A stretch of DNA of 64,000 nt from an uncultured virus (IMG/VR IMGVR_UViG_3300038520_001826) (lineage: Duplodnaviria > Heunggongvirae > Uroviricota > Caudoviricetes). The notes under the pieces are model-generated. The model saw nothing but the letters and a program-made list of their open reading frames with translations. It searched no databases and was not told the DNA's origin. The position numbers were made by a program, and so were the translations under genes. Of this stretch, positions 4,214-53,100 are shown piece after piece (the first letter of the stretch is position 1; every line of letters begins with the position of its first letter). Where the stretch lies: IMG/VR virus record IMGVR_UViG_3300038520_001826. One strand, written 5' to 3'.

Positions 4214-4313
4214 GTGAAAGGGCGGAGAAGGAGCAATACAGATAATTAAAGTGCGGAGGTAATTATCTGTTTATCGTCTAAACGGCCACCTTTGCTACAA
4301 CTTCTCCATGAAG

Positions 4314-4735: not shown

Positions 4736-5215
4736 TCAAAGTTCTTCGGTTGTTTCAGTAGAAAGTAGGGCATCTACTGAACCATCCCAAGTTCCAGCCT
4801 TGTATTGGCTGTTAAGGGAGTTTCGTGTCTTCTTAACCCAAGAAGCAGCAAATTCTTCTGCGGACTCATATTGACCGCCACCAGACTTTGCGTGTTTAAC
4901 GGAGATTGCTCCGATAATTGGGTCATGGTTGTAATAAGCCATAATAGCCTCTTCAACAACGCCACAAATTCTGTCAGTAGCAACACGGACTGCGGCAGGA
5001 ATACTGCTCTTTTGTCCTCGACGGAACGGAGTTCCATCTCTTCCCTTCAATAGAGCCTTAAGTGCGTTATGTGCCGCATCTCGCTCATTTGGGTTTTCTG
5101 TTCCTACTTGAAGGTGCAACTGCACGATTTGTCGCAATCCACCGTCAAGGGCGGAATCTGCTTCCAAATACTCTTCAACTTCAATCTTCAAACTGTTCCA
5201 ATTCATATCATCCAT
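4736..5215 (-). CDS. hypothetical protein, paralog family A (member 1)
   Basis: RRGQKSSIPA, HAKSGG and Y..GTWDG shared with 6028, 7455 and 9577; start probably MDDMNW, downstream of a TTATATA box near 5260-5266. Confidence 0.8.
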   Translation of the reverse strand: MDDMNWNSLKIEVEEYLEADSALDGGLRQIVQLHLQVGTENPNERDAAHNALKALLKGRDGTPFRRGQKSSIPAAVRVATDRICGVVEEAIMAYYNHDPIIGAISVKHAKSGGGQYESAEEFAASWVKKTRNSLNSQYKAGTWDGSVDALLSTETTEEL

Positions 5216-5304: not shown

Positions 5305-5930
5305 TCATTCTAATCTTTCTAAACTTTCTAAAGTTTTTTCTTAGTCAATTCTATTCCATCAATCAATTCATGCAAAAAAACAACCAATGTGGTTTTCAAA
5401 CCAATAAAAATTAATTGATATTTTTACAAATAACATTTTAGATTAATAAATTCTGATGTTTCTAATCGAGGCGAGGTTATTCTAAAACGATTAAATAATG
5501 GGTTGTGCAACACAGCCTAGAAGAAAATTGGCGAAACCGTCATTTTGGCAACATTTTTCTTTTTTCTAATTTTCTAACGACCCCCATAGAGATTCTATAT
5601 CTCCCATAGGGTAATTCTGTAATAAGTAATAAGTCACACACATAATAGTAGTAGTAGTAAGTATTAGAATATTAGAATATTNNNNNNNNNNTTTCCTTCT
5701 GTTACACAACCCTCCAGTTTCTCAAGGTTTGTTTTATTCTAACGACCTCACTGACCTTAGAATAATGTTTTACTTTAATTATAGTATAATTATATCTTAT
5801 ACGATATTGTATATGTATATCCTATACATATAAGACCAATTGAAACATACCCTTTGAAAAGATATTCAGGATTGGTATTAACATTTGATACCTATGTAGT
5901 GTTAAGTTGATAGTATGTAATTAGGTGAAA
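5305..5930. other. AT-rich non-coding region with TTCTAA repeats; candidate replication origin or genome-end region
   Basis: No ORFs; many TTCTAA/TTAGAA hexamers; inverted repeat 5500-5512/5700-5712; lies between divergent transcription units; contains N gap 5682-5691. Confidence 0.4.
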
Positions 5931-5932
5931 CG

Positions 5933-5956
5933 CTTTGTGTTGAACCTTAAGTACCC
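5933..5956 (+). promoter_or_regulatory. TATA-type promoter (CTTTG-N7-CCTTAAGTACC)
   Basis: Same spacing and sequence as the elements at 6762-6784 and 7370-7392. Confidence 0.6.
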
Positions 5957-6027
5957 AATGAGCATTCTATGGACAGTCGTCGAGCATTGGTCAAAAACCA
6001 ACAAAACAAACGACAGGAGGAAAAAAT

Positions 6028-6567
6028 ATGGCTGAATTAACAAAAGCGAAATTTGAAGAGAGATGTGAACCAATTAAGGCTCACATGGCAAAGAACGACA
6101 TAGGGACTTGGGCGCCTTTGATTCAAGGAACTATGGATTTAGGACTTGCTTCTAAGTCTGATGAAGAACGTGGAAACCTTTGGGATTCTATCCGTTCTAT
6201 GGTAAAAAACGTCGAAGGCTTGACCTTGCGTCATGGACGACGTTCAAGCCTTCCAGCAGAAGTTATGGTAAGTGTCCAATCTGTGCGGAACGTAGTGAAG
6301 ACTGCTTGTGTTGCACTTATTGAGAACAATCCAGTATTCCTTGAGGTTATCCTACCTCATGGTAAAACTGGTGGTAATTTCACTCAAGACTCATTTGCAG
6401 AGTATTTTGCAGATAAGGCTGAATCTGCTCTTACTGCGGCTTACCGTGATAAGAACGGACAACGTTGGGATGGAATGCTCAACGACGATGGTATGACTGG
6501 AATGGTTGCTCCAGTTAAGGCCGAATCAAACAATGATGAATCTTCGGAGGTTAGCGAAGAGGAATGA
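6028..6567 (+). CDS. hypothetical protein, paralog family A (member 2)
   Basis: AGGAGG RBS; RHGRRSSLPA, PHGKTGG, YR...WDG; acidic tail. Confidence 0.85.
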   Translation: MAELTKAKFEERCEPIKAHMAKNDIGTWAPLIQGTMDLGLASKSDEERGNLWDSIRSMVKNVEGLTLRHGRRSSLPAEVMVSVQSVRNVVKTACVALIENNPVFLEVILPHGKTGGNFTQDSFAEYFADKAESALTAAYRDKNGQRWDGMLNDDGMTGMVAPVKAESNNDESSEVSEEE

Positions 6568-6618
6568 TTGTTTTGATTGAATGATGGTCAATGCTCGACG
6601 GCCACCCTATTCTTTTGC

Positions 6619-6720
6619 TAAGGGGGGATAATCACATTAGAGCCACTTCAACAACATGGCGTTTGATTGAAGGATAACTGATGAAATGATGTGAGAATCC
6701 CCCCTTATGCTGTTTTTTTT
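6619..6720 (+). terminator. long 3' hairpin followed by T-tract
   Basis: TAAGGGGGGAT/ATCCCCCCTTA and TCACATTA/TGATGTGA stems, then T8. Confidence 0.6.
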
Positions 6721-6745
6721 ATTGCTTAAGATTGCACAAAGCGCA

Positions 6746-6755
6746 ACCATATGGT
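6746..6755. promoter_or_regulatory. palindromic operator ACCATATGGT (copy 1 of 7)
   Basis: Copies at 6746, 7357, 8088, 8698, 9507, 10333 and variant 10556, all intergenic and all preceded by CA. Confidence 0.75.
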
Positions 6756-6817
6756 AGGATTCTTTGAATTATACCTTAAGTACCTAATCCAAATGCATAG
6801 GTCACGGAGGTAATCCA

Positions 6818-7195
6818 ATGTCTGAAACATACATAGTGATAGATACACAAGACAATGAGAGAAGCATTGGTTCTTATTCAAGTAAGAATCATGCCGAAGA
6901 AGATAGAATGCACCTGATGAAAACGCATTTTGAGCGAACTATGGGAGAAATGGAAAAATTAGCCAAATCACCCATCAAGCGAGCGATGAAGAAAATTAAG
7001 GTGGATTTAGACCACCCAGACGTTGATGAGGAAGAGCGTGATTTTGCAATTATGCGAAATCAAACTTTTGTTAAGATTGAGATGGTAAATGAACTTCACT
7101 TCAAGTATAAGAAGTTGAAAGCGTCAATTTCACCAGACAATCCTCGATACATCATCAAGACGATTAAGCATCGAGATTCTCGACGCTTTTCATAA
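6818..7195 (+). CDS. hypothetical protein
   Basis: GGAGG RBS, own promoter and terminator. Confidence 0.8.
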   Translation: MSETYIVIDTQDNERSIGSYSSKNHAEEDRMHLMKTHFERTMGEMEKLAKSPIKRAMKKIKVDLDHPDVDEEERDFAIMRNQTFVKIEMVNELHFKYKKLKASISPDNPRYIIKTIKHRDSRRFS

Positions 7196-7254
7196 ACGGT
7201 CTGATTGACTCATTTTGACTGGTTCGACCAGTGTTGCCACAAAAGTGGTTTTTC

Positions 7255-7294
7255 GCCTCCAACTCGATTCAGGTCGAGTTGGAGGCCCTTTTTT
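7255..7294 (+). terminator. hairpin plus T-tract terminator
   Basis: GCCTCCAACTCGA/TCGAGTTGGAGGC stem then TTTTTT. Confidence 0.7.
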
Positions 7295-7356
7295 CATTTT
7301 TAGCCCCTACCCATCCCTTGCGAATAAATATAACAAAAAGCATTTATAACGCTACA

Positions 7357-7366
7357 ACCATATGGT
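7357..7366. promoter_or_regulatory. palindromic operator (copy 2; full 14-bp CAACCATATGGTTG)
   Basis: 17 nt upstream of a TTAAGTA box. Confidence 0.75.
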
Positions 7367-7454
7367 TGTCTTTGACAACCTCATTAAGTACCTATTGTGC
7401 TTTCTATGAACGGTTTATGGTGCATAGTGAATCATCTACTATGGAGGAATCAAA

Positions 7455-7953
7455 ATGAACAACGAAAAATGGACAATTAAGAAACAACTAATCGTTTCTT
7501 TTGTGAACAACAACGATGTGGGCAATTTTGCCCCTATTGTTTTGGGTACAGTTGAAATGGTTGATAATACACAGCCTGATGACAGAACACCTTTGATTGA
7601 ATCTCTACGTTCAATCTTCAAGACTATTGACCCTAACAAGGTTAGTGGGGCCTTTCGTACAGGAAAAGCCTCTTCACTTCCCGCTAGTGNNNNNNNNNNG
7701 CATTATGTCGGATGTACGGGCAAATCTTCAAGATTTGTTTAATGCTCCACATATGTCTCAAATCCTTACGCCTCACGGCAAATCAAAGGATATGGGCGAT
7801 TTGTTCGTCAATGATGAACAATACGCTGAATATGAAGCAAAGCGCATTGAAAGCAGATTGACTCGATGGTATCGAAAACAAATCTGGGACGGTACGCTAG
7901 AAGGACTGCAAACGCTTTCTTTCCCTTCAATGGAGGTTGAAGAGGAAGAATGA
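7455..7953 (+). CDS. hypothetical protein, paralog family A (member 3), split by an assembly gap
   Basis: RTGKASSLPA before the N run (7690-7699); PHGKS and YRKQIWDG after it in another frame; collinear with 6028. Confidence 0.8.
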
Positions 7954-7989
7954 TTTGCTATGCACCATAGGCCACCTTTACTCCTTAAT

Positions 7990-8058
7990 GGGCAATAGGG
8001 CAATGAAAAGTAAAATGAAAATTAATTCCGACTTTTCGCCCTATTGCCCTTGTTTTTT
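7990..8058 (+). terminator. long 3' hairpin plus T-tract
   Basis: GGGCAATAGGGC/GCCCTATTGCCC stem then TTTTTT. Confidence 0.65.
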
Positions 8059-8087
8059 GTCGAGGTTGAAATGGCAAAGCCATTACA

Positions 8088-8097
8088 ACCATATGGT
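8088..8097. promoter_or_regulatory. palindromic operator (copy 3)
   Basis: CAACCATATGGTTG flanked by CAAAG and CTTTG. Confidence 0.7.
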
Positions 8098-8173
8098 TGA
8101 TAATCTTTGTATTATAAAACCTTGAAAAGGAAAACCGAATTTAATCGGTTTTTTAGTTGAATTGGGGTTCAAT

Positions 8174-8641
8174 TCAACGACGTGGCTCATAAGTCATACT
8201 TGATTCGATTCTTTTAATCTTATCAATTGCACTATCATATTCATGAATAGAGCGAATTTGCGTATGCATCATAATGCCCAGTATTCGACACATTCCTTCA
8301 ACGTCTCTAAATCGCTTTCGGACTTCAGACATAAACGTTTTACCCGTAAAGTATCTGAATTGTTTTCTGGTCATATTGGGATTAAGTCTGAACTCTTCCT
8401 GATACAATTCGTCAAGTTCTATTTCGTTGTTTGCGAATTTGATTTGATGGGTTTCAAGTTCTGTTTGTAGCCATGTTTGAAACTTAATCAAAACGGTCTG
8501 CAATATAGCGAACACTTCTGTTTGTGTTTTTGTTTGGCTGTTTTTCAAAGAAAGGAGGAACTGTATGAACCATATTGTTTGTTTGGTTCTGTCTTCCATT
8601 CTATGTAGGCTTCTTACGTCTTTAGGTTCTAATATTATCAT
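8174..8641 (-). CDS. hypothetical protein
   Basis: 155-aa ORF with CCTTAATATA box and operator upstream. Confidence 0.75.
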   Translation of the reverse strand: MIILEPKDVRSLHRMEDRTKQTIWFIQFLLSLKNSQTKTQTEVFAILQTVLIKFQTWLQTELETHQIKFANNEIELDELYQEEFRLNPNMTRKQFRYFTGKTFMSEVRKRFRDVEGMCRILGIMMHTQIRSIHEYDSAIDKIKRIESSMTYEPRR

Positions 8642-8697
8642 AGTTTTCCCATTCTTAGGTTAATTATTGATTATATTAAGGGTGCATCAAATGTGCA

Positions 8698-8707
8698 ACC
8701 ATATGGT
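8698..8707. promoter_or_regulatory. palindromic operator (copy 4)
   Basis: 18 nt from the minus-strand TTAATATA box. Confidence 0.7.
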
Positions 8708-8974
8708 ATGGCTTTGTCATACCTTGACTTAAAAAATTGAGGGCTTCCGCCTACTAAATATCGAATTATACAGACGTTTTCTATATCGGGCATTAACTAG
8801 TATTGCCAACTTATCTATCACGTGTGCATTCTCGCCTATCTTTCGGCTTCAGCCCCTAATGGTGTTATATGGCCAATCAATTGCCATTGGAGTAATTGGA
8901 GAATATAGAACGGCATTCCCTTAATTTGCCAGATTAGTCACCTTTCGGCTATTGGATTCATCTATATCCTATTG

Positions 8975-9015
8975 AAAAAAATTTGGGGGGAGGATTGCCT
9001 CTTTCCTCCCCCCAA
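8975..9015 (-). terminator. hairpin plus T-tract terminator
   Basis: TTGGGGGGAGGA/TCCTCCCCCCAA stem followed by T7 on the minus strand. Confidence 0.7.
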
Positions 9016-9075
9016 CGTATGTTCCCTGTAATAGTCAATTTTCTATGACTACGACTTGAATACCGAGAGGCGTAT

Positions 9076-9207
9076 TCAAACGGGCGGAAGGGGATTACAG
9101 TCTAAACAAGACTTCAATGTGTATCTATGTTCAGAGTCTCTACAAATCTTTGTCACTGCATGTCTAAATGCAGGTATTTCATTAATTACAATTGTTTCAT
9201 CAGTCAT
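9076..9207 (-). CDS. 43-aa Cys/His peptide (possible Zn finger), not in ORF track
   Basis: ATGA overlap with 9204 ORF; MTDETIVINEIPAFRHAVTKICRDSEHRYTLKSCLDCNPLPPV. Confidence 0.55.
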   Translation of the reverse strand: MTDETIVINEIPAFRHAVTKICRDSEHRYTLKSCLDCNPLPPV

Positions 9208-9461
9208 TCTTCTTCACCTTTTGTAAAATCAACGTTAGTGCCCATTGTTGGGTTTTCTTTAATAAATTCAAAATAGTTCTCGTAATCTGAAGCAATTACA
9301 ACCATATCATTCATATCGGCTGTAACTTTGAATCCTCTTGCTTCGAGATAATCAAGTATCTTTAGCAATTCATTGTCATCATTGAATTTGTATTTTCGTT
9401 CAACAAGTATTGTTCTGTCATGGTGTAGCATATTACCTATTCTTATGAAATTTGGCTCCAT
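9204..9461 (-). CDS. hypothetical protein
   Basis: ORF directly behind a TTAAATA box and operator (near-leaderless). Confidence 0.7.
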   Translation of the reverse strand: MEPNFIRIGNMLHHDRTILVERKYKFNDDNELLKILDYLEARGFKVTADMNDMVVIASDYENYFEFIKENPTMGTNVDFTKGEEE

Positions 9462-9506
9462 GTCCTAGAATCAATTAAAGGGTATTTAACGGGCTTGACA
9501 AAGACA

Positions 9507-9516
9507 ACCATATGGT
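9507..9516. promoter_or_regulatory. palindromic operator (copy 5) between divergent promoters
   Basis: TATA boxes at 9483-9489 (-) and 9538-9546 (+). Confidence 0.75.
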
Positions 9517-9576
9517 AATGCACTTTGGGACAGAACCTTAAATATACCCTATGAAACCTATAAACGGTGAAAGCCA

Positions 9577-9861
9577 ATGTGGAGAAAAAGACAAAAACCA
9601 CCAAAGGAAGTAGAAAAGGAAATTGAACAAGTTGCGAAAGTAGTTAGAGAGGTAATTGAGGGATTAAGCCCAGATTGGGAAATTCTTCAACTTCTCGTTC
9701 ACTCTCGTTCTGAAAGAGTTGTTTTGAATCAAGAACAACTAGCAAAGCACTATGAACGACGAATAAGGGCTAAACTCGGTATGTTGTATAGACAAGGCCG
9801 ATGGAATGGAAAACGCCCTATTGTTGTTAAACCAGTAAAGAGACTATGGGAGGAAGAATGA
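9577..9861 (+). CDS. hypothetical protein, truncated paralog family A (member 4)
   Basis: VHSRS and LYRQGRWNG align with the C-terminal half of the family. Confidence 0.65.
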   Translation: MWRKRQKPPKEVEKEIEQVAKVVREVIEGLSPDWEILQLLVHSRSERVVLNQEQLAKHYERRIRAKLGMLYRQGRWNGKRPIVVKPVKRLWEEE

Positions 9862-10196
9862 TGGTATCAGCGAAGCATTTTGAGGCATTTGCTGGTTGGG
9901 TTGCTAAAGAGGAAATGATGGGAATTGAAGAAAATAGGGTTGAAAGCCTATGTGTTCTTCTTGAATCCTTCAATCCTAACTTTGACAAAGGGCGATTTAT
10001 TGCCCGTTGTGATGAATTGCAGGGTTTTGAGCGTGGAAAGTTTGGTTTTCCTATCTCTTCTCAAAATATGCCCGATTTAGTCCTTCATAACCTTCTTGGG
10101 TATCTTTCAAAGGCTGAAACACAAAAAGAGCGAATAGGCATTCAAGAATGCATTGACGCTACTTTGAAGGTTTTTCCTCATTTGAAGCCAGATTGA
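9858..10196 (+). CDS. hypothetical protein
   Basis: ATGA overlap and GGAGG RBS; NPNFDKGRFIARC segment. Confidence 0.7.
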   Translation: MMVSAKHFEAFAGWVAKEEMMGIEENRVESLCVLLESFNPNFDKGRFIARCDELQGFERGKFGFPISSQNMPDLVLHNLLGYLSKAETQKERIGIQECIDATLKVFPHLKPD

Positions 10197-10332
10197 GCCT
10201 TTAACCCCTCAAACGTGCGTGTCCTAAGCATGACCATAAAAACTGCTTGGCTTCGGCCATTTTTTAGCCCCTACCCTCCCTGTGAATTAATCACCTATTA
10301 TCGAAAGAACATAATGTTTAATTAATTCAACA

Positions 10333-10565
10333 ACCATATGGTATTGTTAATTTATGCGTTATGCATTAGGGTATTATGCTATTATATGTAATCTATATAG
10401 ATAATCTTAGAAATATATAGATATGACTCTTATTAAGCCAATTATAGCCAAAATAATAGGCCGTTAATCAATACACCATAAATAAATTAAAACGTCGTTA
10501 TGCACTATGCATTGGCATATTAACGCCCTATTATTCTAAATAAAAATAATACACAACCATATGGC
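10333..10565. promoter_or_regulatory. palindromic operator copies 6 (10333) and 7 (10556, variant) in an AT-rich spacer
   Basis: CAACCATATGGT and CAACCATATGGC. Confidence 0.6.
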
Positions 10566-10777
10566 TTTGTTCCAATTTTTATTTTTATATATGAACAATG
10601 CATCATTGAGCATTTAAGCTTAAATAATGCATTATTAATCACTTTAGCAGCCATAATTAAGTCTAAACAACCTATTTAGCATCAATGCATCGAATTAGTT
10701 TGCAAGATATGGTTAAAATGTTAAACCTAACAATGCTTATAATATAGACTGAACTACCTAACCTTGAGGCAAGATAT

Positions 10778-22579: not shown

Positions 22580-23950
22580 ATGGATTTAAGTGAATTAACT
22601 CCTGAAGAGATTGATGAGGTTGCTGATAATGCAACTGAACAGGCTCGCCTCAAAAGATTATCTCAACAGGCTAAAGAAGAAATGCAAACTTTAACCAATA
22701 AATCTTTTTTGGTTGGTGGTCGAGTCCTTTCAGAATTAGAAGAGATTCACAAAATTTCAACGCATATGAATATCAATGCAACAGAAGCGAGAAAACAATT
22801 AACCTTTCCACAAGAATACAACATTGATGGTCAAACTATTCCTGACCTTGTTAGAAAGATGCGTAAAGCAAGAAGACAATTAAAGGGAGATATGAGAGAT
22901 AAAATGAATAAAAGTATTGACTCTCTCATTGATGGGTATTCTGATTATCTAAACAAGTGCATTGATTCTATGCATTGGATAAGTCCTTACTCCATCCCAC
23001 TTAAGAAAATGTCTATTACAGAAAAAGATTTATTCAAACTTAACAAAATGAAAGATACTACATCAAGAAGAGAAGTAGTAGATGTTTTGTGTAAGTATTG
23101 GGAACTTGATTTAGACCAAAAAGACATGGCTTTTTGTAGAGATTATGCTAAAATTTCAAAGGAGATGAAAGAAGTTAAGAAAGAATACAGGGCCATTCTT
23201 TCTAAGATTAATTCTCAGCAATTGAAAAAGTCTAAGAAAGAACAGGCTAAAGAATTTATTCTTAAACAAATTGTCAATAATCCTGGAATTGGTGCAAAAA
23301 GAATACATGAAAATATGCCCAGTCCATTATACAAATACAGCAATAGTAATATGATTTCTAAAATGGTTAGAAGCATGAATGTTGCTAATTACGAAGGTGC
23401 TTATTACAAAGTTCCATCAATGATGAAGAAAAATATTTGGGCTTATACTGCTGCATTTATTGATTCAGATGGTTATATTACATTAGACCGTAACATGAAT
23501 CCTAGAGTTGGATTAGTTGCAACAGGAGAAAGAGGAAAGGCTTTCATGCAAGAAATGCATAAATCTATTGGATTTGGCAGAATGCATCTTGACCAGAAAT
23601 CACCACAAGATACTCGTTTAATTAACAGATTAAATTTCTATTCACAAGATGACGTTACTGACCTTTTAACAAAGTGCTTGCCTCATTTTAGATTAAAGAA
23701 AGGTAATGCTAAATTATTACTTGAACTTATTCGCATGAAGAAGTCTTACAAGAAAGCCGATTGGTATAAAGACCGTTGCGATGAAATCTTTAAATTAATG
23801 AAGTGGGAAAACCATAAAGACCATGTTGGGTTTGACTGGGCTAAAGAGAATATTTACTTAGATGATATTGCAAAGTTACAAGGTAATTGTAAAATGAGCC
23901 TTATGGATGAATTGGAGAATGTTGGTGGTATTGTTCTTAAGGAGGAATAA
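22580..23950 (+). CDS. LAGLIDADG-domain protein with long N-terminal helical extension
   Basis: WAYTAAFIDSDGYI motif, then GFGRMH and LPHFRLKK typical of the LAGLIDADG fold. Confidence 0.85.
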   Translation: MDLSELTPEEIDEVADNATEQARLKRLSQQAKEEMQTLTNKSFLVGGRVLSELEEIHKISTHMNINATEARKQLTFPQEYNIDGQTIPDLVRKMRKARRQLKGDMRDKMNKSIDSLIDGYSDYLNKCIDSMHWISPYSIPLKKMSITEKDLFKLNKMKDTTSRREVVDVLCKYWELDLDQKDMAFCRDYAKISKEMKEVKKEYRAILSKINSQQLKKSKKEQAKEFILKQIVNNPGIGAKRIHENMPSPLYKYSNSNMISKMVRSMNVANYEGAYYKVPSMMKKNIWAYTAAFIDSDGYITLDRNMNPRVGLVATGERGKAFMQEMHKSIGFGRMHLDQKSPQDTRLINRLNFYSQDDVTDLLTKCLPHFRLKKGNAKLLLELIRMKKSYKKADWYKDRCDEIFKLMKWENHKDHVGFDWAKENIYLDDIAKLQGNCKMSLMDELENVGGIVLKEE

Positions 23951-31506: not shown

Positions 31507-34008
31507 ATGCCTCTTCTCATTGAAAAGGATAAAGATTCTTCTGAAGAGATTATACGTCTTTTCGAGAAAACAAGAGTCGCTTATCTATCTGCTCGCACCG
31601 ACCCCAAAGAATATGGGAATAGGTGGCGTAAAGCAATTGATGACATTAGAGAAATCTATGAGCAATTGAATGAACTTAGTAAAGAAATGAAAAATTTTGT
31701 TCAAGAAAACGAATTAGAAAACAAAGAAGCAAAAGACCCTACAAGTAATATCGCTGAAAAGATTTACAACGGTATTAAAGAAATGCGATTCAGTTCTGAT
31801 TTAATTTCAGACCCATTCGCAAGAAAATACAAAGGGGATGTTCTTGAAGGATTGCTTTCTTCTCCAGAAATGATGGTCAAATTTGTTCACTATGCTTTAA
31901 GAAATGATGATAAAGCACTTCCAAAAGAAGTTTGGAGCATTAAAGACATGGAAGCCGACACGATAACTGATGGGTTGAAAGGACTTGACCTAGATGAAGA
32001 GGACATTCCTCTCTATATTATCGAACAGTATGGTGACGATAAAGACTCAAAAAAGGTAGAAAGCAAAGTTAAGGCTGCCTTAGAGATATTAGAAACGTTA
32101 TTTTTCTCCAAATACTCAAAAGAAGATTTAAAAGACTTGAAGGAAATTGATGGTATTGAAAAGTCCGAACAAAAATCTAAAAGTGATTTCATCATTCCTA
32201 ATAAACCAATGTATAGAATCTTCGATATTGATGACATGAATGAATTAAAGGGCTTCTCAGGAAATTACCTTGTTCAAGAAAAGTATGATGGTATGAGAAT
32301 ACAGATTCATAAGATTGATGGTAATGTTCGTATCTATTCATATAATGAAAAAGATATTTCTGAAAAGTGCAAAAAACAGGTTGAAGAACTTAAAAAGAAA
32401 AAGTATGGAGATTGCATTCTTGATGGCGAATTGATTCTTTTTGACGGTGACGAAGCCCTACATCGTGCTGATACTATTGCTCATGTATTTAAGAATAAAT
32501 ACCCTGATGCTAAGTTAAGAGCGCACGTTTTTGACATTATGAGACACAATGAACAAGAATTAGTAGAAGAAGAACTTGATAATCGAATCAATACTTTATT
32601 TAACAACTATTCAATGCATTCAACAGAAGCAATAGCATTTCCATCAAAGAAAGATACAAGAACTGCTGATAACTTGAAGGATGTGGAAGAGTATGCGAAA
32701 GAGATTATGGATATGCCTACATCCGAAGGCGTAGTTATCAAGGATATGACCTCGACGTATTACATAGGCACAAGAAAGAATCCTAAGTGGATTAAGTGGA
32801 AGAAGTTTGTTGATTTGGATTTAATTGTTCTTGATAAGAAAACTACAAAATCAAATCTAAATTCATATACATTGGGAGCAGGGCCAGCCGAAGGAGAAGG
32901 AAAGTTTTATTCTGAAATTGAAGGTAAAGTCTATATGGATGTTGGTAAGGCATTAAATACCAAAATAGATGTAGATATTGGAGATATTGTTCGAGTTAAG
33001 GTTGATGAAGTTAAAAAGAATGGAGATAGATATACTTTGTTTTCTGCAAAGGTTATTGAAGTTCCTGAAGTTGAATATCCCGACAAAATTGTTACACTAG
33101 AAATGCTTTCACAAGATACTAAGAAATCATTGAATTATGATGTTAAAGCATTAGAAAAGGGAATTATTGTTACAGACCATATTCATGGAGAAACTAATGT
33201 AATTATTAAATCCGATTTTGATGGTTTTACTATTTATGGTTTTGAAGAAAGTAATCTTATGTCTAAGAACGCATTAATTGATATTGATATGTGGAAGGCA
33301 CAAGCCGAGGAGATAATGAAAACTAAGCAATCACAATTAACTCAAATAGTATTTAATCATTTAAAAGAAAACGGTTCCAAAACTCCCAAAGAAATACACA
33401 ACTTCTTAGTTAAAAATCATAAATCTATTTATGAAGACATATTGGAAAGTAAATTAAATAGAGTCAAGGATTGGTTTGAAAATAGAGATGGCATTTCTTT
33501 TGATATGAAAACTAAAAAATTATTTTCTGAGGATGATAAAGTTATTAAAGAACCAGCGATGTTAAAAGCATATAAAACTCCAGAAGAATATCGTAAAGGT
33601 AATTTTAAGATTTATTTGAGAGATGATAATAATTTAAACTTTACAATATCTGTTGGCGGAGAAACAATGCATTGGTATATTGAACTTAATGAAGAGGATG
33701 ATATCTTCGATTTATTTGGAAAGGCGGGTAAATATCCTGCTGAAGTTTCAAAGAATGTTTCTAAGGATAAGGTAATTGATTCTGGCAAAATTGAATTAGG
33801 ACTACAAAGGCATGGTTATCATGAGTATTTCTTAGAAGGAAATAAGTTTGAAACAAAATTACACATTAGAGTATTACCTGTAAAAGATAAGAAAATGTGG
33901 CTTGCATGGACTGGATTCAAACAAACCCCTGCTGATAAGGACAATGACGAAGGAATCTGGAACATCTATGAGGATAGGTTTAACGAATTAACCATACCAC
34001 AAGAGTAA
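31507..34008 (+). CDS. lig: ATP-dependent DNA ligase with N- and C-terminal extra domains
   Basis: EKYDGMR (motif I), LDGEL (III), VFDIM (IIIa), EGVVIK (IV), WIKWK (V), then OB-fold-like segment. Confidence 0.92.
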   Translation: MPLLIEKDKDSSEEIIRLFEKTRVAYLSARTDPKEYGNRWRKAIDDIREIYEQLNELSKEMKNFVQENELENKEAKDPTSNIAEKIYNGIKEMRFSSDLISDPFARKYKGDVLEGLLSSPEMMVKFVHYALRNDDKALPKEVWSIKDMEADTITDGLKGLDLDEEDIPLYIIEQYGDDKDSKKVESKVKAALEILETLFFSKYSKEDLKDLKEIDGIEKSEQKSKSDFIIPNKPMYRIFDIDDMNELKGFSGNYLVQEKYDGMRIQIHKIDGNVRIYSYNEKDISEKCKKQVEELKKKKYGDCILDGELILFDGDEALHRADTIAHVFKNKYPDAKLRAHVFDIMRHNEQELVEEELDNRINTLFNNYSMHSTEAIAFPSKKDTRTADNLKDVEEYAKEIMDMPTSEGVVIKDMTSTYYIGTRKNPKWIKWKKFVDLDLIVLDKKTTKSNLNSYTLGAGPAEGEGKFYSEIEGKVYMDVGKALNTKIDVDIGDIVRVKVDEVKKNGDRYTLFSAKVIEVPEVEYPDKIVTLEMLSQDTKKSLNYDVKALEKGIIVTDHIHGETNVIIKSDFDGFTIYGFEESNLMSKNALIDIDMWKAQAEEIMKTKQSQLTQIVFNHLKENGSKTPKEIHNFLVKNHKSIYEDILESKLNRVKDWFENRDGISFDMKTKKLFSEDDKVIKEPAMLKAYKTPEEYRKGNFKIYLRDDNNLNFTISVGGETMHWYIELNEEDDIFDLFGKAGKYPAEVSKNVSKDKVIDSGKIELGLQRHGYHEYFLEGNKFETKLHIRVLPVKDKKMWLAWTGFKQTPADKDNDEGIWNIYEDRFNELTIPQE

Positions 34009-44329: not shown

Positions 44330-45983
44330 ATGGCAGTAAATACAGATATATTTTTAGGCAGTGGCGCAACTTTGACTATGATTCCAGAATTGGATTTAAA
44401 AGTCATATTGAACAATTCAGGCTCAACAACAACTAAACTGGTTGCTGATGCCCTTTGGACAGATAACATAAGAATGGTAGAAAACCTCTACGTTGGATGT
44501 GTTGTTGATTTATTTGATGCGTCTGAATCTACAACGGAAGTTCATTCTACTCACGTTATTACTGCTAATGATACTACATCTATTACAATTTCTCCTGCAC
44601 ATACCTTAACTATCCAAGATGCAACAGATTTCATTGTTATTAGAGGGTATGGCGCACCTGCTCCAACAACCTTAACAGGTTCTATTGCACGATTAAGTGC
44701 TGATAATTGGTTAGGTCTTTTGGAAAGTGCGACATTCCCTAATCTTGAAGTAGAAATGAAACAAATGAATTTATCTTTGGGAGGTTCAAGAAACTTTACT
44801 CATCAATACAAAGGTATTGAAACTGCAAGCGGAGGTAATTTGGCTATTGTTAATAATCAAGGAACATGGCTTTATTATGCTTTAGGGAAATGTACACAAA
44901 TTAACGCAACCTTTACTGGAAGTTCTTCATTAGACCCTGCAACACCGCCATATACTGCTCATGCAAACAACGTTCATTATTTGGACATTGGAGAAACTGC
45001 AACTGCAAAAGCATTTAGTGATAACATTACAGGCTTTACATCGACAGGGCCAATCTTTTACAGAACTGCAAGGGATTCTACATTTATGATTCCTCCAGTA
45101 GCAAATCAAGATACTGCTACACATATGGCACTATTAACATTACCAGAATATAATGCAAGCGGTGTTCTAACAAATCCAATTAAATATACATTTGCTGAGG
45201 CAAATGGTGAAGAATTACCTTCGTTTGGATTAGAACAAAACATGAGTAAATTAGAAGCAACTNNNNNNNNNNAATCCACACAGAATAGGGGATACTACAT
45301 TAGCAACTGAATCTCATAACTTTGTTCGTATTGCAAGAGGTAATAGAGTCAATACTTTAACAATGACGGCTAATGAAAATGAAGAAGTCAAAATGACTCT
45401 TGATTTGAATACAAGAGCAGTTCATAAATTAAAAACAAATGAAGCATATGAAGGTCGTGCAGGTGTTGATGATAATGCTAATTTGTTTAACTTTGGAAGT
45501 GGTTCAAATACATTAACTGCAACAGGAGAAGAATCACTTGAGCCATTTTTCTTTTCAAGTGGTTCTTTCACTATCTTTGGAGAGCAGTTCCTTAAAATTA
45601 CAAATATGACATTGACTATCAATAATAATTTACAAGATAAAAGATTTATCGGTGTTGGAAATAAATCAATTAAAACTGGCGTTCCTGCTCAAAGAACATA
45701 TGAAATTTCTTTTACTGCTATGGTTACAGATAACAAATTATTTGAAGAACTTCTCGACCAAACAGAAGAAGGAACAAGCAATCTTATCACTTTACAATTT
45801 GATAAGAATGCTCCCGATGGAACTCTTAATGAGCAAATTTTATTAAAGTTCCAAGATTACTTCTTAAGTTCAGCAAACATTACAATTCCAGATGACAAAG
45901 GGCCAATCACTATTGAAGGAACAGTAATGCCTAGAAATCTAAATACTTGTGAAGTTAGAACTCATTGGATTTTACAGGGGTGA
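44330..45983 (+). CDS. major tail tube protein (one gene split by N gap 45263-45272)
   Basis: Post-gap frame runs continuously into the 45363 ORF; ITNMTLTINNNL...RTYEISFT tube-like C-terminus; precedes chaperone and tape measure. Confidence 0.75.
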
Positions 45984-49059: not shown

Positions 49060-50193
49060 ATGTATCAAGTATTAGCAGGTAAGAAAAGAAGTTTAGTCTT
49101 TCCTGTTATGTGTAATGGTTTTGTTAAACTAGATTATTCGGATAATGTAGTTGATACAAATAATGATGGAGATACATCCAATGATATTGCTTATGGATTA
49201 TTTGACCATGAAGGTTCATTTACTTTTGAAGCAATTGTTACGCCATATGATATTAACGGTTATGGTCGTCAAAGTGCAAGTGGCACTATTCCTAGTTTTA
49301 CACTAAGTAAAAAAATAATGCCATCGAATAGTCATCAATCCACAACTGCGAATTATCAAAGTGAACTTTATCTTCCCGTTAGTGGTGGAAGATTGACACA
49401 TGAAATGAGAATATTTAGTAATGATAAATTTTCTGTTTCTTTACTTAATGCTACTTCGTTTAATGAGAATCAACCTGCTGAATATAAGATAAGAGTTTCG
49501 ATGGATATTGGGGGAACAACTGAAACCTTTACTACTACAAGTGCAGTTATTACTGCTAATAAGAGTTCTATGTTCAAATGGAGTTCTACCTCCGATACTG
49601 AAGGATTTGACAGTAATGGTCGAAGAACATTTGATTTGCTAGGCTCGACTACCTCGCATAGCGGTGCTGTTATCGGTCTTTCTGGTACAGTAGAAAATCA
49701 GTGCCATGCGAGCCAAGAACTCTTCATTAGGGATGGTTTTACGTTCACGTCTATTGGTACTATTGCTAGCGTAACGGGTACGACGAGCGTTACTCTTAGC
49801 GCTTCATATTCTCCGACCTTGAGTAATGGAACAAAGGTGTTTATTCATTCTAGGAAGGAGGCTTCTTACATTAACAACACCTATCACATTGCTTGCACAT
49901 ACACTCAATCAAGTAATAGAATCAATATTTTCCTAAATGGAATTAATGTTTTAAGCACTAAGCATACTCAATCAGGAACATTTGCTTTTGGTAGAACAGA
50001 TAGTTTTATTGGGGCTAACGGAACAGGTGCAACAGGAACATTATCAGCAATAACAAATAAACAATTTATGGGAGAGATGCATGAAATGTCTATCTTAAAT
50101 ATTCCTAAAACAACGTTTGTAAATAAAGAGAATCTTTTACCAAGCCTTAACAACACATTACTTTATCTTAGATTTGAGGAGATTGATTTATAA
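49060..50193 (+). CDS. tail protein with LamG/concanavalin-like domain
   Basis: SFTFEAIV...YHIACTY...IFLNG...FMGEMHE. Confidence 0.7.
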   Translation: MYQVLAGKKRSLVFPVMCNGFVKLDYSDNVVDTNNDGDTSNDIAYGLFDHEGSFTFEAIVTPYDINGYGRQSASGTIPSFTLSKKIMPSNSHQSTTANYQSELYLPVSGGRLTHEMRIFSNDKFSVSLLNATSFNENQPAEYKIRVSMDIGGTTETFTTTSAVITANKSSMFKWSSTSDTEGFDSNGRRTFDLLGSTTSHSGAVIGLSGTVENQCHASQELFIRDGFTFTSIGTIASVTGTTSVTLSASYSPTLSNGTKVFIHSRKEASYINNTYHIACTYTQSSNRINIFLNGINVLSTKHTQSGTFAFGRTDSFIGANGTGATGTLSAITNKQFMGEMHEMSILNIPKTTFVNKENLLPSLNNTLLYLRFEEIDL

Positions 50194-53100
50194 TGGCAAT
50201 CAAAGTCTTTCAAAAAGGTGAAACTACTTTTAGTAGTGGCAATGGATATAAAACTCCTACTAATCCTCTAATTGAATCGAATACTAGTTTTGGTTCTACG
50301 GATAGGTTATTTACTTTAATTTATCCTGATGATTCTACATCAAGTGAGACTTTTGTAGAAGTAGGAACATCTAGTGAAAATACAGAAAGAAACAATTTGC
50401 AGACTACAAAAGGTTTTAGAATCAAATGTTTTGATAGTATTACTTCAACAGGTGTTCAATTAACAGGTGGTAATTATGATAGTGCTTTTCATTACTTTGT
50501 CTTGATACATTCGGATGACCACCTAAAGCATCATTTTGCGAGAGTAACAGACATTATTACAGAAGATGTCGTTGGAGATGCCTTTGAATTTACACCAGCA
50601 TTAGGTAAAGAAATACCTAAAGATACAAAGTTTATGTTATTTAAAGGCCCAGCATTGACTACTACTGCAATTGCTTTTTCAGCAGGGATTAAGCAAGACC
50701 TAAAAGCCTCCCTAGTTGTTTCATCTCCATTATTTCATCTGCTAGAATCTTCTTTAAATAAGAAGAATGAATTAGACCACAATACAAAATACTTTGTTAG
50801 ACTAAACAAAACAGATAGTGGGGGTACGACAACACTAGATACTAATTCAGAAGAATATACATTTGTTACAGAGCAAGAGTTTTCAAATAAAATTTTAGAT
50901 TATAGCAAATATTCAATGCAATTGACTTTAGTTGATAAGTTAAAGGATTTAGATAATCCAAGCACACACACTTCTAATGAAGGTAATACTATCAACAGTT
51001 TAGACTATACTGATTATGACGATGCTTTTCCTAATGCTAGAAGAGATAATGATGATTTAATAAATCCAACTTCTCAAATTGTTAATGAAGGCCCTATTAG
51101 ATATTTACATTATGATTTTTCTCCAACAAAAGTCAATGTATTAGATAACGTAATTGATAATAAATTAGAACAGTCTATTGGAAATCGTGGAGGATTCTGT
51201 GAAACTAAAATTATGAATCCTAGTAGAATGCTTACAAGCAAAATTACTGAGTTCGATAAGTATAGAGTCAGACATAGAGTATTTACAGGAGATTTGAATG
51301 AATTCGTTGATATGAAAATTACATTAGGTTCTCTTATTACAACCTTTAGCGATGCTAGATATAACTTAATAACTGATTATTCTGATGCAACTAATTTTAT
51401 TAATGTAGGAGATGAGATTAGGATTGGTAATAGAATTTTAATATGTGCGATTATTACATCTTCTGTAATTAAGTTTGAAGAATACAGTAGATTAGAAACA
51501 GAATCCTCTTTTACTAATTCAACTAGTTTAACCTCCTTAACAGGAACATTGCAAAGAAGGGCTTATAATTACCAAGATAATACAATTCTAACTTCATTCA
51601 ATCTACTTGCAGGTAGGAGTTCGGAATTATATGTAAAAACTATGTCAAAAGATATGGAATTTATTGAATCGTCTGTAACTGCTGTTGATGCTACTCATGG
51701 ACTAATTACACTAAGTTCTAATTCTCAAAGTTATTCTTCTGATTCTTCGCTTAGATATTCTTTAGGTTCTTATCATATAGAAGTAGAGAGGTTTTCTGGA
51801 ACAATTGAAAAGGTTGATTCATATAAAGAAGATTCGCAGAACTATGTAGAACTTTCTGGAAGAAGCGATATTAGTAAATTATTTGGGCCAATTATTAATA
51901 AAGATACTGCATTTTCAGAAGATATTATTTATTCTACTTTGAGTCCATATAATACTTTATCACAGATTGATTCAACTAATTTTACATTAGCGTTGGGAGC
52001 CACCTCCTTGGCAACAGGAGTCAATGCTGCTGATTTTGACATATTACCAGTAGTAGGCAATAGGTTATTTACCGTTAATGGCTTTATAGGCGAAGTAAAT
52101 ACTGTTAGTGCTGGCGACCCTAAAACAATCACATTGGTTTCGGGTGCTTTGACAAAAGTTCATTCTGAAAAGATATATGTAGAAACAGATAAAAACTATA
52201 TGTTTAATAAAGCATTAAGTTCATCTCATCTAGCATCAGTTAATCCAACATCATTAAGTGGTTCTGCGGGTAAAGGAGTTTTCTTTACAAGCGGTAAAGA
52301 AATTACAATGTCTGATGGTTCAGAAGGAAATGATTTAGTCGGGAGTAGTATCAATACAAACCCGAAAGCAATTGGCTATCATATTAACAGTCCAGTATCA
52401 ATTAAAAATGATAATGCTTTTCAAGCAAAGTTTGTAGATGAAATAGGAAGCGAATCAAATTCTTCATTTGATACTGTTAATACTTTAATTGATTTTGAAA
52501 TAGTTAGTTTAGAAAAGAAAGAAAACGAATCAACTATTGTTTTAGCCCCCTATCTTCCTATTACTTTAGGAAGAAAACTACCTAATTATGGAAATGCATC
52601 CTCTTATACTTTAACAGAAGAAGCAACAATACAAAATACTGATTTGGGTTCTGGAAATACACTAAATACTTTTATTCCCAGTGCAATAGAAACTGTTACT
52701 GATGGTATTAAGGACTTTGATTATGGAGATGCAGTATTCATCGGTGCTGATTCGAATTCTGCTCGGTTTGCTGGATTTATCAACGAATTTATTTTCGTTA
52801 CTGGGCAACCTAATTATGGGCCAGCAATCATCTTAGATAGAAATGTCACTCCCGTTACTGGAGAAAAAGTATTTTCAGTGGTTAAAGATACTCATGATTT
52901 ATTTTTCGTTAATGGAAAGCATCTTTGGGGAGGTAAAATTCTAACAATGCCTCATCCAAAGATTACTTCAAGTGGTGCAGTTCCAGTAAATTTTAAAAAT
53001 ATATATTCTTCAAACACTGATATTGCGAAAAAATATGGACAAATGTACTATAAACTATTAAGTGTTTCTGATGGAGAATTTAACGTGCTTAATTCTAAAT

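Follow-up and report, generated by a model that had tools for sequence, protein, structure and literature searches.

Why should the two untranslated regions (UTRs) of a short viral gene be complementary to one another over 24 base pairs? The question is raised by positions 7,367 to 7,989 of a 64,000-nucleotide stretch of DNA from an uncultured virus of the Caudoviricetes (IMG/VR record IMGVR_UViG_3300038520_001826), which we refer to as the window. An initial annotation, made from the letters alone, had described here an mRNA panhandle (panhandle 2), formed around an open reading frame (ORF), p2, whose paralogue p1 lies within a panhandle of its own (panhandle 1). We find that panhandle 2 is real, and that it is a selected helix of the sense RNA. 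We further propose, as a reading to which we give an even chance, that the helix closes a monocistronic early transcript and shields its 5′ end and 3′ UTR from RNases. The parts of the element are as follows.

7412..7435, plus strand: 5′ arm of panhandle 2 (direct reading, duplex scan, orthologues, UTR–UTR test).
7455..7953, plus strand: ORF p2, 168 amino acids (aa), a member of a helical protein family without annotation, with an acidic C-terminal tail.
7950..7973, plus strand: 3′ arm of panhandle 2, containing the stop codon TGA at 7951-7953 (direct reading, duplex scan, orthologues).
7974..7976, plus strand: ACC directly after the last pair, part of a conserved GGCCACC (family helices).

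Read directly from the window, 7412-7435 (GGTTTATGGTGCATAGTGAATCAT) pairs antiparallel with 7950-7973 (ATGATTTGCTATGCACCATAGGCC) through 24 contiguous pairs, of which 20 are Watson–Crick and four are G.U (positions 3, 4, 17 and 18 from the base), with no A.C opposition. This bears out the initial description of a 24-bp duplex with four G.U pairs, the 3′ arm of which holds the stop codon. A repeat search counting Watson–Crick pairs only recovered the same arms as 20 nt at 90%. When the whole window was scanned on both strands for contiguous duplexes, with G.U allowed and arms 60–1500 nt apart, panhandle 2 was the longest duplex found, followed by duplexes of 21 nt on the minus strand and 19 nt on the plus strand. 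None of 24 dinucleotide-preserving shuffles of the window reached 24 pairs (range 17–23). We also tested, gene by gene, how well the 80 nt preceding the start codon fold with the 80 nt following the stop codon, and set the result beside 200 shuffles. The p2 duplex had an energy of −50.2 kcal/mol, against −21.4 ± 4.1 kcal/mol for the shuffles (z −7.1, 0/200), and p1 gave a z of −5.5 (0/200), while nine neighbouring genes, which served as a control, ranged from −1.5 to +0.6. Thus, chance pairing is ruled out by the duplex scan, the window shuffles and the UTR–UTR z-scores alike. In a fold of the whole p1 transcript, panhandle 1 was present in both the minimum-energy and the centroid structures. 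Rfam, applied to the window at gathering thresholds, returned tRNA-Leu only, and no known RNA family at the helix.

The arms of the two panhandles had been called unrelated. This is mostly so, except that both helices share a base of the form RGU.../...GGCC-ACC. Panhandle 1 is composed as follows.

5976..6009, plus strand: 5′ arm of panhandle 1, made up of helix H1 (5976-5993) and helix H2 (5998-6009) (inverted-repeat search, folding).
6568..6606, plus strand: 3′ arm of panhandle 1, made up of H2′ (6568-6579) and H1′ (6585-6602), then CACC of GGCCACC (6600-6606).

A third GGCCACC, at 4284 on the plus strand, was considered and dropped: its surroundings paired no better than shuffles (z −0.35). 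It lies antisense to the tRNA/helicase unit, and by our own estimate one chance copy is expected.

Among close orthologues, bases in the arms change on both sides and pairing is retained. In helix H1 of p1, aligned over 14 loci (12 distinct rows), 95.3% of cells were paired, compared to 14.6–56.7% when the partner was slid by one to three columns. Two-sided changes took C-G to U-A in five of the 12 rows and G-C to A-U in four; since the rows form two clades, these amount to about one event per pair. Helix H2 differs between the clades, being CAAAACAA/TTGTTTTG in one and CACCAAAA/TTTTGGTG in the other. The seven orthologous p2 loci show three helix forms, of which that of the window is the 24 contiguous pairs. 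In L001, L009, L012 and L018, an 8-base insertion in the 3′ UTR still leaves 17+5 or 17+6 pairs by means of a duplicated TGATT. In L014 and L019, the inner half of the helix has changed from GCATAGTGAATCAT to GAGATTAGTCATC with matching changes in the 3′ arm, about nine two-sided changes in all. Compensatory change therefore keeps the pairing, as expected of a 5′UTR–3′UTR interaction.

The same design extends to distant members of the gene family. Related viruses were gathered by scanning viral contigs for a palindrome, CAACCATATGGTTG, that lies upstream of the p2 promoter; the family proteins found in this way are 30–39% identical. We examined 21 family copies, 19 of which were usable (the L085c locus ends 6 nt past the stop codon, and no start codon was found for L086). 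A UTR–UTR helix was found at 0–1 of 100 shuffles in 17 of these 19, the other two being L062b (2/100) and L071, which has a helix of 8–9 bp (5/100). At 30–39% protein identity the helix sequences are unrelated among family members, and each arm is matched to its own partner: all 16 of the 5′ arms in a swap test paired best with their own 3′ arm (mean −36.6 kcal/mol, against −16.1 ± 5.1 kcal/mol for foreign arms, n=240). The annotation's argument from conserved structure without conserved sequence thus holds, by shuffles and by swaps, well beyond the two paralogues on which it was made. The helices are 17–32 pairs long. Of the trailing GCCACC that it proposed as a mark of the homologues, beside the UTR complementarity, a CC occupies the second and third positions past the last pair in 15/19, or in 18/19 if a one-base shift is allowed.

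The helices also identify the molecule in which they form. Over all 19, the opposed positions comprise 453 Watson–Crick pairs, 46 G.U, 2 A.C, 16 U.U and 20 others, and the sense duplex is more stable than the antisense one in 17, with one tie and one reversal. DNA inverted repeats would give G.U and A.C equally, so the 46 G.U against 2 A.C point to RNA of the sense strand, and the mismatches of the homologues are G.U-biased, as anticipated for an RNA helix. Inversion at the DNA level, the competing outcome, was not seen. No joints or inversions appeared in the DNA contigs of runs X1 and X3 (a weak check, as contigs drop rare forms), and the orientation of the ORF to its own arms, promoter and terminator is constant at 14/14 p1 and 7/7 p2 orthologous loci. 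Together, the G.U bias and the absence of inversion support the reading of this element as a 5′UTR–3′UTR panhandle at the mRNA level.

The placement of the helix is constant too. Its 5′ arm ends 15–24 nt before the AUG in 18 of the 19 helices, its 3′ arm has its first base at −4 to +8 nt relative to the stop codon, and the Shine–Dalgarno sequence (SD) lies outside the main helix across the family. The base is similar throughout: first come two G-C or C-G pairs, next U.G or U.U, and beyond these the long stem. The CC past the last pair is single-stranded in the window (GGCC|ACC) and is buried in six of the 19 in a small CCC-loop-GGG hairpin that abuts the helix. The 5′ arms of L085, L087, L088, L026, L062 and L041 are G-rich and SD-like (GGAGGG, AAGGAG, GGGAG), and their 3′ arms are C-rich (CCCTCC and similar); the reverse arrangement never occurs. 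An archaeal bulge-helix-bulge site was considered and rejected: the p2 helix is contiguous, and none of the 19 helices contains the 3-nt bulge, 4 bp, 3-nt bulge arrangement.

What such a helix might do depends on where the transcript begins and ends. The elements that bear on this are listed below.

7355..7368, no strand: palindrome CAACCATATGGTTG upstream of the promoter; its core is repeated in the window and it is found in distant relatives.
7370..7374, plus strand: CTTTG box, part of an extended palindrome CAAAG...CCATATGG...CTTTG.
7384..7390, plus strand: TTAAGTA, predicted A/T-rich core promoter box, common to p1, gene 6818 and p2.
7402..7411, plus strand: TTCTATGAAC, initiator region on an archaeal reading, or end of a short leader on a bacterial one.
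7443..7447, plus strand: SD GGAGG, outside the helix, 7 nt past the 5′ arm and 7 nt before the AUG.
7990..8058, plus strand: predicted terminator hairpin GGGCAATAGGGC...GCCCTATTGCCC with a 36-nt loop, then TTGTTTTTT (read from the sequence).

Most of the architecture ascribed to p1 and p2 in common is present in both: TTCTATG(G/A)AC, 5′ arm, GGAGG, ORF, 3′ arm ending in GGCCACC, long hairpin and T-tract. The upstream element given as CTTTG-N7-TATA has to be replaced, the actual common element being CTTTG-N9-TTAAGTACC. CTTTG is not a fixed −35 element, because its spacing to the A/T-rich box is 10 to 24 nt in relatives. The box itself lies at 5947 for p1, 6776 for gene 6818 and 7384 for p2, and starts 28 nt upstream of the first paired base of p2 (28–29 nt in this clade). 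In relatives it takes the form (C/A)TATAC(T) and mostly starts 24–29 nt upstream of the first pair, as located by an automatic finder that was noisy for five of 17 copies. The −1/+1 step at the first pair is pyrimidine|purine in 11/17 copies.

The box would be TATA-like if the host is archaeal and −10-like if it is bacterial. Archaeal TATA boxes are described as lying 'around 28 nucleotides upstream' of start sites (PMC8553660), so that under archaeal transcription a box 24–29 nt upstream would place the start at the first paired base, and the RNA would begin with the 5′ arm. Under bacterial transcription the same box would act as a −10 element, and the RNA would carry a leader of some 10–14 nt ahead of the helix, the −10-like TATACT being 17–19 nt upstream of it. 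The segment TATGRAC, which lies between box and helix, is also present before gene 6818, where the archaeal reading would leave a 5′ UTR of only ~13–14 nt, with no room for a helix. More broadly, the TTCTATGAAC element is kept at p1 (5965) and p2, and related forms precede gene 6818 (CATAGGTC), the paralogue p3 and gene 9577. When the 5′ UTR was folded alone, its first 6 nt were mostly paired in 17 of 18 homologues. We favour the archaeal start, because TATGRAC precedes the helix-less gene 6818 and because the local hairpin pairs the same first bases; TTCTATGRAC may then be promoter DNA rather than RNA leader.

At the other end of the unit, the p2 terminator hairpin is also present in L001, L009, L012 and L018. 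All five of the RNA-library contigs that match the 2.2-kb p1/p2 stretch (from two libraries) fall inside the predicted p1 or p2 transcripts; these contigs are short and assembled, match at 90–97% likeness, show no starts or ends, leave uncovered parts uninformative and could include DNA carry-over. The terminator hairpins of p1 and p2 (6608-6722 and 7990-8058) are unusually long or large-looped, at ~100 nt in total and with a 36-nt loop, respectively. Their stems are conserved among relatives and their interiors are variable.

These features suggest how the helix could protect the message. The loop contains only the SD, the AUG and the ORF, and the 3′ arm runs from the stop codon to just before the terminator. 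The 5′ arm would lie at, or a few bases from, the 5′ end of the RNA. Transcription would start at the first paired base, with the A/T-rich box 28 nt upstream as in archaeal TATA spacing, and the nascent 5′ end would fold into a weak local hairpin. Some 540 nt later the 3′ arm would be made and the far more stable long-range helix would take over (about −38 to −46 kcal/mol), leaving the 5′-triphosphate end recessed in a duplex of at least 22 bp and the 3′ UTR double-stranded to the terminator. Exonucleases acting 5′-to-3′, of the aRNase J or aCPSF2 type, could then not load, while in a bacterial host 5′-end-dependent and UTR-cutting endonucleases would be blocked. A message protected in this way would last longer and yield more protein, with terminating ribosomes having to melt the top of the helix at each round. 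To our knowledge most archaea lack RNase III, and a perfect duplex of 24 bp could therefore persist in such a host. Archaea do have agents that act at 5′ ends: aRNase J is described as a 5′-3′ exoribonuclease conserved in Euryarchaeota (PMC7144898), and in Sulfolobus aIF2-gamma is reported to bind the 5′-triphosphate end of messages and to stabilize them (PMC3936769).

A third paralogue in the window has no long-range helix and a local structure in its place.

4736..5215, minus strand: third paralogue p3, without a long-range helix and with a local 5′ UTR hairpin instead.

Its UTRs gave a z of −0.2 in the UTR–UTR test, with 70 of 200 shuffles as good. The local hairpin lies at the equivalent place in the 5′ UTR and has an energy of −11.7 kcal/mol in five of seven orthologues, being shorter in the other two. 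The p3 hairpin, the local pairing of the first bases in homologues and the position of the A/T-rich box with its pyrimidine|purine step all point to the 5′ end as the feature under selection. End protection is the reading that fits most of the features: the helix is at the 5′ end, local pairing of the first bases would cover the time before the 3′ arm is made, p3 has its local hairpin, and the 3′ UTR would be double-stranded up to the terminator.

The analysis shows the helix together with its covariation, strand specificity and geometry; the transcript ends, the protective effect and the domain of the host are matters that we infer. For the host, the gene content of the virus gives some guidance. 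The window encodes a tailed virus, with large terminase, portal, prohead protease, capsid protein, tail tube and tape measure, and in addition a UvrD-type helicase, a PD-(D/E)XK nuclease and an ATP-dependent ligase. Between 4 and 11 kb it carries short, mostly monocistronic units, each downstream of the palindrome CAACCATATGGTTG. Relatives of the virus come from marine metagenomes; blastn found none among cultured phages, tblastn with p1 against cultured phages found nothing, and the terminase is at most 26.7% identical to those of Bacteroides phages. In all three related genomes, one complete (90,867 bp, with terminal repeats) and two partial, PolB is split into two genes. The best solved matches of a relative's PolB are to Thermococcales PolB (E 2e-17 to 1e-12) and eukaryotic Pol delta, with RB69 phage at E 5e-9, and among NCBIfam models it fits PRK05761 best ('DNA-directed DNA polymerase I'), which we take to be an archaeal PolB family. 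The window also carries a nuclease of the Hef/archaeal XPF type and, at 31507-34008, between portal and prohead protease, an 833-aa protein with an ATP-dependent ligase domain. A split PolB (group B1) and an ATP-dependent ligase within the structural module are described for the magroviruses of Marine Group II archaea (PMC5434244), and both traits are found in this group, the split family-B polymerase in the three related genomes and the ligase in the structural module of the window. From these genes the virus is probably magrovirus-like, and we give an archaeal host a chance of about two in three. The window shows no excess of sigma-70-type promoters (39, against 43 ± 6.8). Models for sigma-70 region 2, DnaB and SSB, like those for several magrovirus genes, went unmatched in the three related genomes, which settles the host neither way.

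Several observations weigh against an archaeal host or against protection as such. Hairpin-plus-T terminators, which are canonical for bacteria, number 12 in the window (for example 7255-7286), against 6.6 ± 2.6 in shuffles. A solitary homologue complete with panhandle lies in a 2.3-Mb contig of an Akkermansiaceae metagenome-assembled genome (MAG). This copy (L145, 2001-2522) has a panhandle of −34.8 kcal/mol and a decayed palindrome CCATAGGG, in local DNA of 51.5% G+C, and its gene neighbours are cellular (a membrane glycosyltransferase-like gene and a large secreted-protein gene); the family gene occurs at strong score in only one of 401 genomes of that MAG's phylum. A further family copy occurs on a contig of 14.7 kb that was assigned by binning to a Flavobacteriaceae MAG. 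MCM, RadA, archaeo-eukaryotic primase (AEP) and sliding clamp are reported in all 26 magrovirus genomes, most of them, though not AEP, needing profile–profile searches (PMC5434244); Pfam models for MCM, Rad51/RadA, AEP primase and PCNA had no match in the three related genomes. In a bacterial host, the leader of ~10–14 nt before the helix would leave the 5′ end itself unhidden. Whatever the host, the helix is opened by every terminating ribosome, which limits protection, and simple shielding does not explain the conserved base with its two G-C pairs, U.G or U.U, and NCC. Finally, the RNA contigs come without mapped transcript ends, and the promoter box and the terminator are predicted.

The conserved geometry could instead serve translation. 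In this alternative, which we consider unlikely, the stop codon is brought beside the SD and AUG so that terminating ribosomes re-initiate, or the 3′ arm licenses translation by removing an anti-SD segment. The positions of the two arms relative to AUG and stop codon are in keeping with this, as is an SD that stays outside the main helix. The unpaired probability of the p2 SD was predicted to rise from 0.64 with the 5′ UTR alone to 0.85 when the 3′ arm was added. Among 18 homologues the SD became freer with the 3′ arm in nine, less free in two and was unaffected in seven (mean 0.49 to 0.62), and in L085 and L026 the 5′-UTR segment that locally pairs the SD pairs in the panhandle with the stop region GAGUGA. 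However, the effect is modest, p1 of the window shows the opposite (0.95 to 0.82), and the predictions come from thermodynamic folding alone. No example from bacteria or archaea in which RNA returns ribosomes to the start that they came from is known to us. Equally improbable in our estimation is that the helix makes the message functionally circular without a protein bridge, passing terminating ribosomes back to the start because the stop codon sits within one helix end of the SD, and restricting translation to complete transcripts through competition with a local anti-SD hairpin; if true, this would be an RNA-only counterpart, in abundant ocean viruses, of the eukaryotic closed loop.

Less probable again is that the helix is a bacterial processing site, in which RNase III cuts the duplex of at least 22 bp or the 3′ arm plus NCC guides RNase P to remove a leader, an idea that we doubt and to which we give a slim chance, together with its outcome of a mature message with paired ends either way. 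RNase III needs roughly 20 bp, a need that the helices of 17–32 pairs exceed, and the −10-like TATACT would leave a short leader to be removed. The CC at the second and third positions past the last pair recalls bacterial external guide sequence (EGS) substrates, which are described as 13–16-bp stems with a 3′ RCCA, the two C of which pair with RNase P RNA, and which are cut at the single-/double-strand junction (PMC4693268). Yet the A of CCA is not conserved (the fourth position is A in only three of 19 helices), the N of NCC is a pyrimidine in eight of 19, contrary to a stem with 3′ RCCA, and in six of 19 the CC is buried in the hairpin described above. An archaeal host would have no leader to remove, and neither a sigma-70 gene in the relatives nor an enrichment of sigma-70-type promoters in the window was found.

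The unexplained base of the helix would have a role if its G-C, G-C, U.G or U.U and NCC form an operator bound by the encoded protein or a paralogue, which would make p2 autoregulatory; we hold this, too, to be rather improbable. The base motif is common to helices with unrelated interiors, and two Arg-rich motifs, RRGRES and PHGRTGG, are conserved in the family proteins. Only the p2 family has the helix, which is absent from the nine neighbours, including gene 6818 with its promoter of the same type, but common descent of the cassettes would also account for this restriction. Moreover, the proteins are acidic, with acidic tails, and neither Pfam and PHROG searches nor structural matches suggest RNA binding.

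It is highly improbable that the arms are a DNA-level element with no RNA role (terminal inverted repeats of a mobile or invertible cassette, a cruciform or a recombination site): they are indeed inverted repeats flanking one gene, the cassettes are rearranged among relatives (p1 and p2 do not share a strand in L014) and one copy stands alone in a bacterial chromosome, but the strand bias set out above leads us to reject it, the arms lie within a promoter–terminator unit, the turned cassette of L014 carries its own promoter and terminator, and the ORF matches no transposase or recombinase family.

Returning to the gene itself, a run of N at 7690-7699 in p2 hides 18 bases rather than 10, as shown in two DNA runs, by a loose end in X1 and by an insertion of 8 bases in X3. 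With these bases counted, the ORF is unbroken and encodes 168 aa, like that of L001; the apparent frameshift is an artefact. Runs of 10 N also occur at 5682-5691 and 45263-45272; such runs do not preserve length. The relatives of p2 in the window are the p1 gene (6028-6567, inside panhandle 1), p3 and a truncated fourth paralogue at 9577-9861 on the plus strand. The latter, identified by its sequence, is a 94-aa ORF that resembles the C-terminal half of the family (RWNG, ending EEE) and overlaps the next ORF; its 5′ UTR has CTATGAAAC...AAACGGTG like that of p2, without a 3′ arm. In relatives, the true SD can also pair with CCTCC in conserved TPPP codons, ~40 nt before the stop codon.

A search of 1.84 billion cluster representatives gives 260 members of the p2 family at E ≤ 0.001. 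The family has no match in Pfam, PHROG or NCBIfam, nor among PDB sequences (best E 0.57). A protein model built from 13 sequences was poor (predicted local distance difference test, pLDDT, 59.5), whereas one built from 88 was confident (pLDDT 91.5) and all-helical; the family has a conserved RWDG motif in addition to the two Arg-rich ones, and an acidic tail. A Foldseek search of the model against PDB was uninformative (best E 2.0), as was a BFVD search, which found two unnamed viral proteins only. The best Z in VIA was 8.1, over a 59-residue helical stretch and to a 62-aa helical chain, which is below a meaningful level for helical folds.

The window has seven copies of the core CCATATGG of the upstream palindrome, none of them outside 6.7–10.6 kb (6747, 7358, 8089, 8699, 9508, 10334 and 10557), and the same palindrome stands upstream of family genes in distant relatives. 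This recurrence makes CAACCATATGGTTG a probable binding site of a dimeric early-gene regulator. It is often flanked by CAAAG...CTTTG, with early units downstream of its copies across 6743-10571, and seems to serve promoters on both strands (for example at 8695 and 9504). In addition, GGTTG, which forms its right half, pairs with CAACC further downstream, beside the A/T-rich box, and this pairing shows compensatory changes among relatives (GGTTGTC/GACAACC vs GGTTGGC/GCCAACC).

Some further features of the window and of its relatives can be recorded here. At 8085-8160, a promoter-like copy (CTTTGTATTATAAAA) has a hairpin and T-run no more than ~25 nt after it, and at 8740-9030 a stretch of ~300 nt that contains no ORF lies past the 8695 palindrome, on its downstream side, and ends in the hairpin GGGGGGAGGATTGCCTCCTCCCCCC; both may be small non-coding transcripts. 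The terminase is followed at 22580-23950 by a 456-aa protein with an HNH-endonuclease match, and the PolB gene of relatives is interrupted by an ORF of 207 aa that includes an IscB-like HNH segment. A 2055-aa ORF (50193-56360) downstream of the tape-measure region has almost no family match; its product is probably a tail fibre or host-recognition protein.

How does panhandle 2 compare with known systems? UTR–UTR pairing is known from a handful of bacterial genes; it is not known as a family-wide covarying design in DNA viruses, nor in archaea or their viruses. A literature search returned hbs, icaR, hok and the panhandles of RNA viruses only, with no case from DNA phages or viruses of archaea. 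In the present family (260 sequence clusters, in common marine viruses) the gene is guarded by helices of which at least 16 are unrelated in sequence, and this flags a family with an unknown helical fold as important early cargo. If the 5′ end is buried, the panhandle would provide a simple, mutable handle on 5′-end-dependent decay in Euryarchaeota, where this decay is little known, and it offers a natural design for stabilizing messages. Of the traits expected of interactions of the hbs, hok and icaR kind, the viral helices show UTR complementarity within one gene, compensatory change and sense-strand specificity.

The processing stems of archaeal rRNA, which contain bulge-helix-bulge motifs, also enclose a whole functional RNA by a long-range helix between its flanks. 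They resemble the panhandles in this enclosure and differ in their bulges, p2 having 24 contiguous pairs and its relatives U.U mismatches instead. In icaR of Staphylococcus aureus, the 3′ UTR reportedly covers the SD, blocks translation and creates an RNase III site, whereas the viral SD is not in the main helix. What icaR has in common with p2 is a 3′ UTR that pairs with its own 5′ UTR (PMC3868564). A closer likeness is seen in hok of plasmid R1, where, as described in PMC9841398, the extreme 5′ region pairs with the message's own 3′ end (tac/fbi) to give a closed, stable message, and local alternative pairings involve the SD. The closed form of hok is, by the same account, translationally silent and is activated by 3′ trimming, whereas the viral SD lies outside the helix and tends to be freer when the message is closed; the viral panhandle, moreover, has neither an antisense RNA nor a toxin. 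In the hbs mRNA of Bacillus subtilis, a 14-bp interaction between 5′ and 3′ UTRs is reported to modulate cleavage by RNase Y (Braun, Durand and Condon 2017, PMC5737220). Both are long-range pairings between the UTRs of a single monocistronic message, and in hbs, as reported there, the message is highly expressed and the access of an RNase is controlled. The hbs interaction, as that source presents it, concerns one bacterial gene and overlaps an internal RNase Y site rather than lying at the RNA end; the viral helices, in contrast, comprise 17–32 pairs, are placed at the 5′ end or beside it, extend to the stop codon and covary across a whole family.

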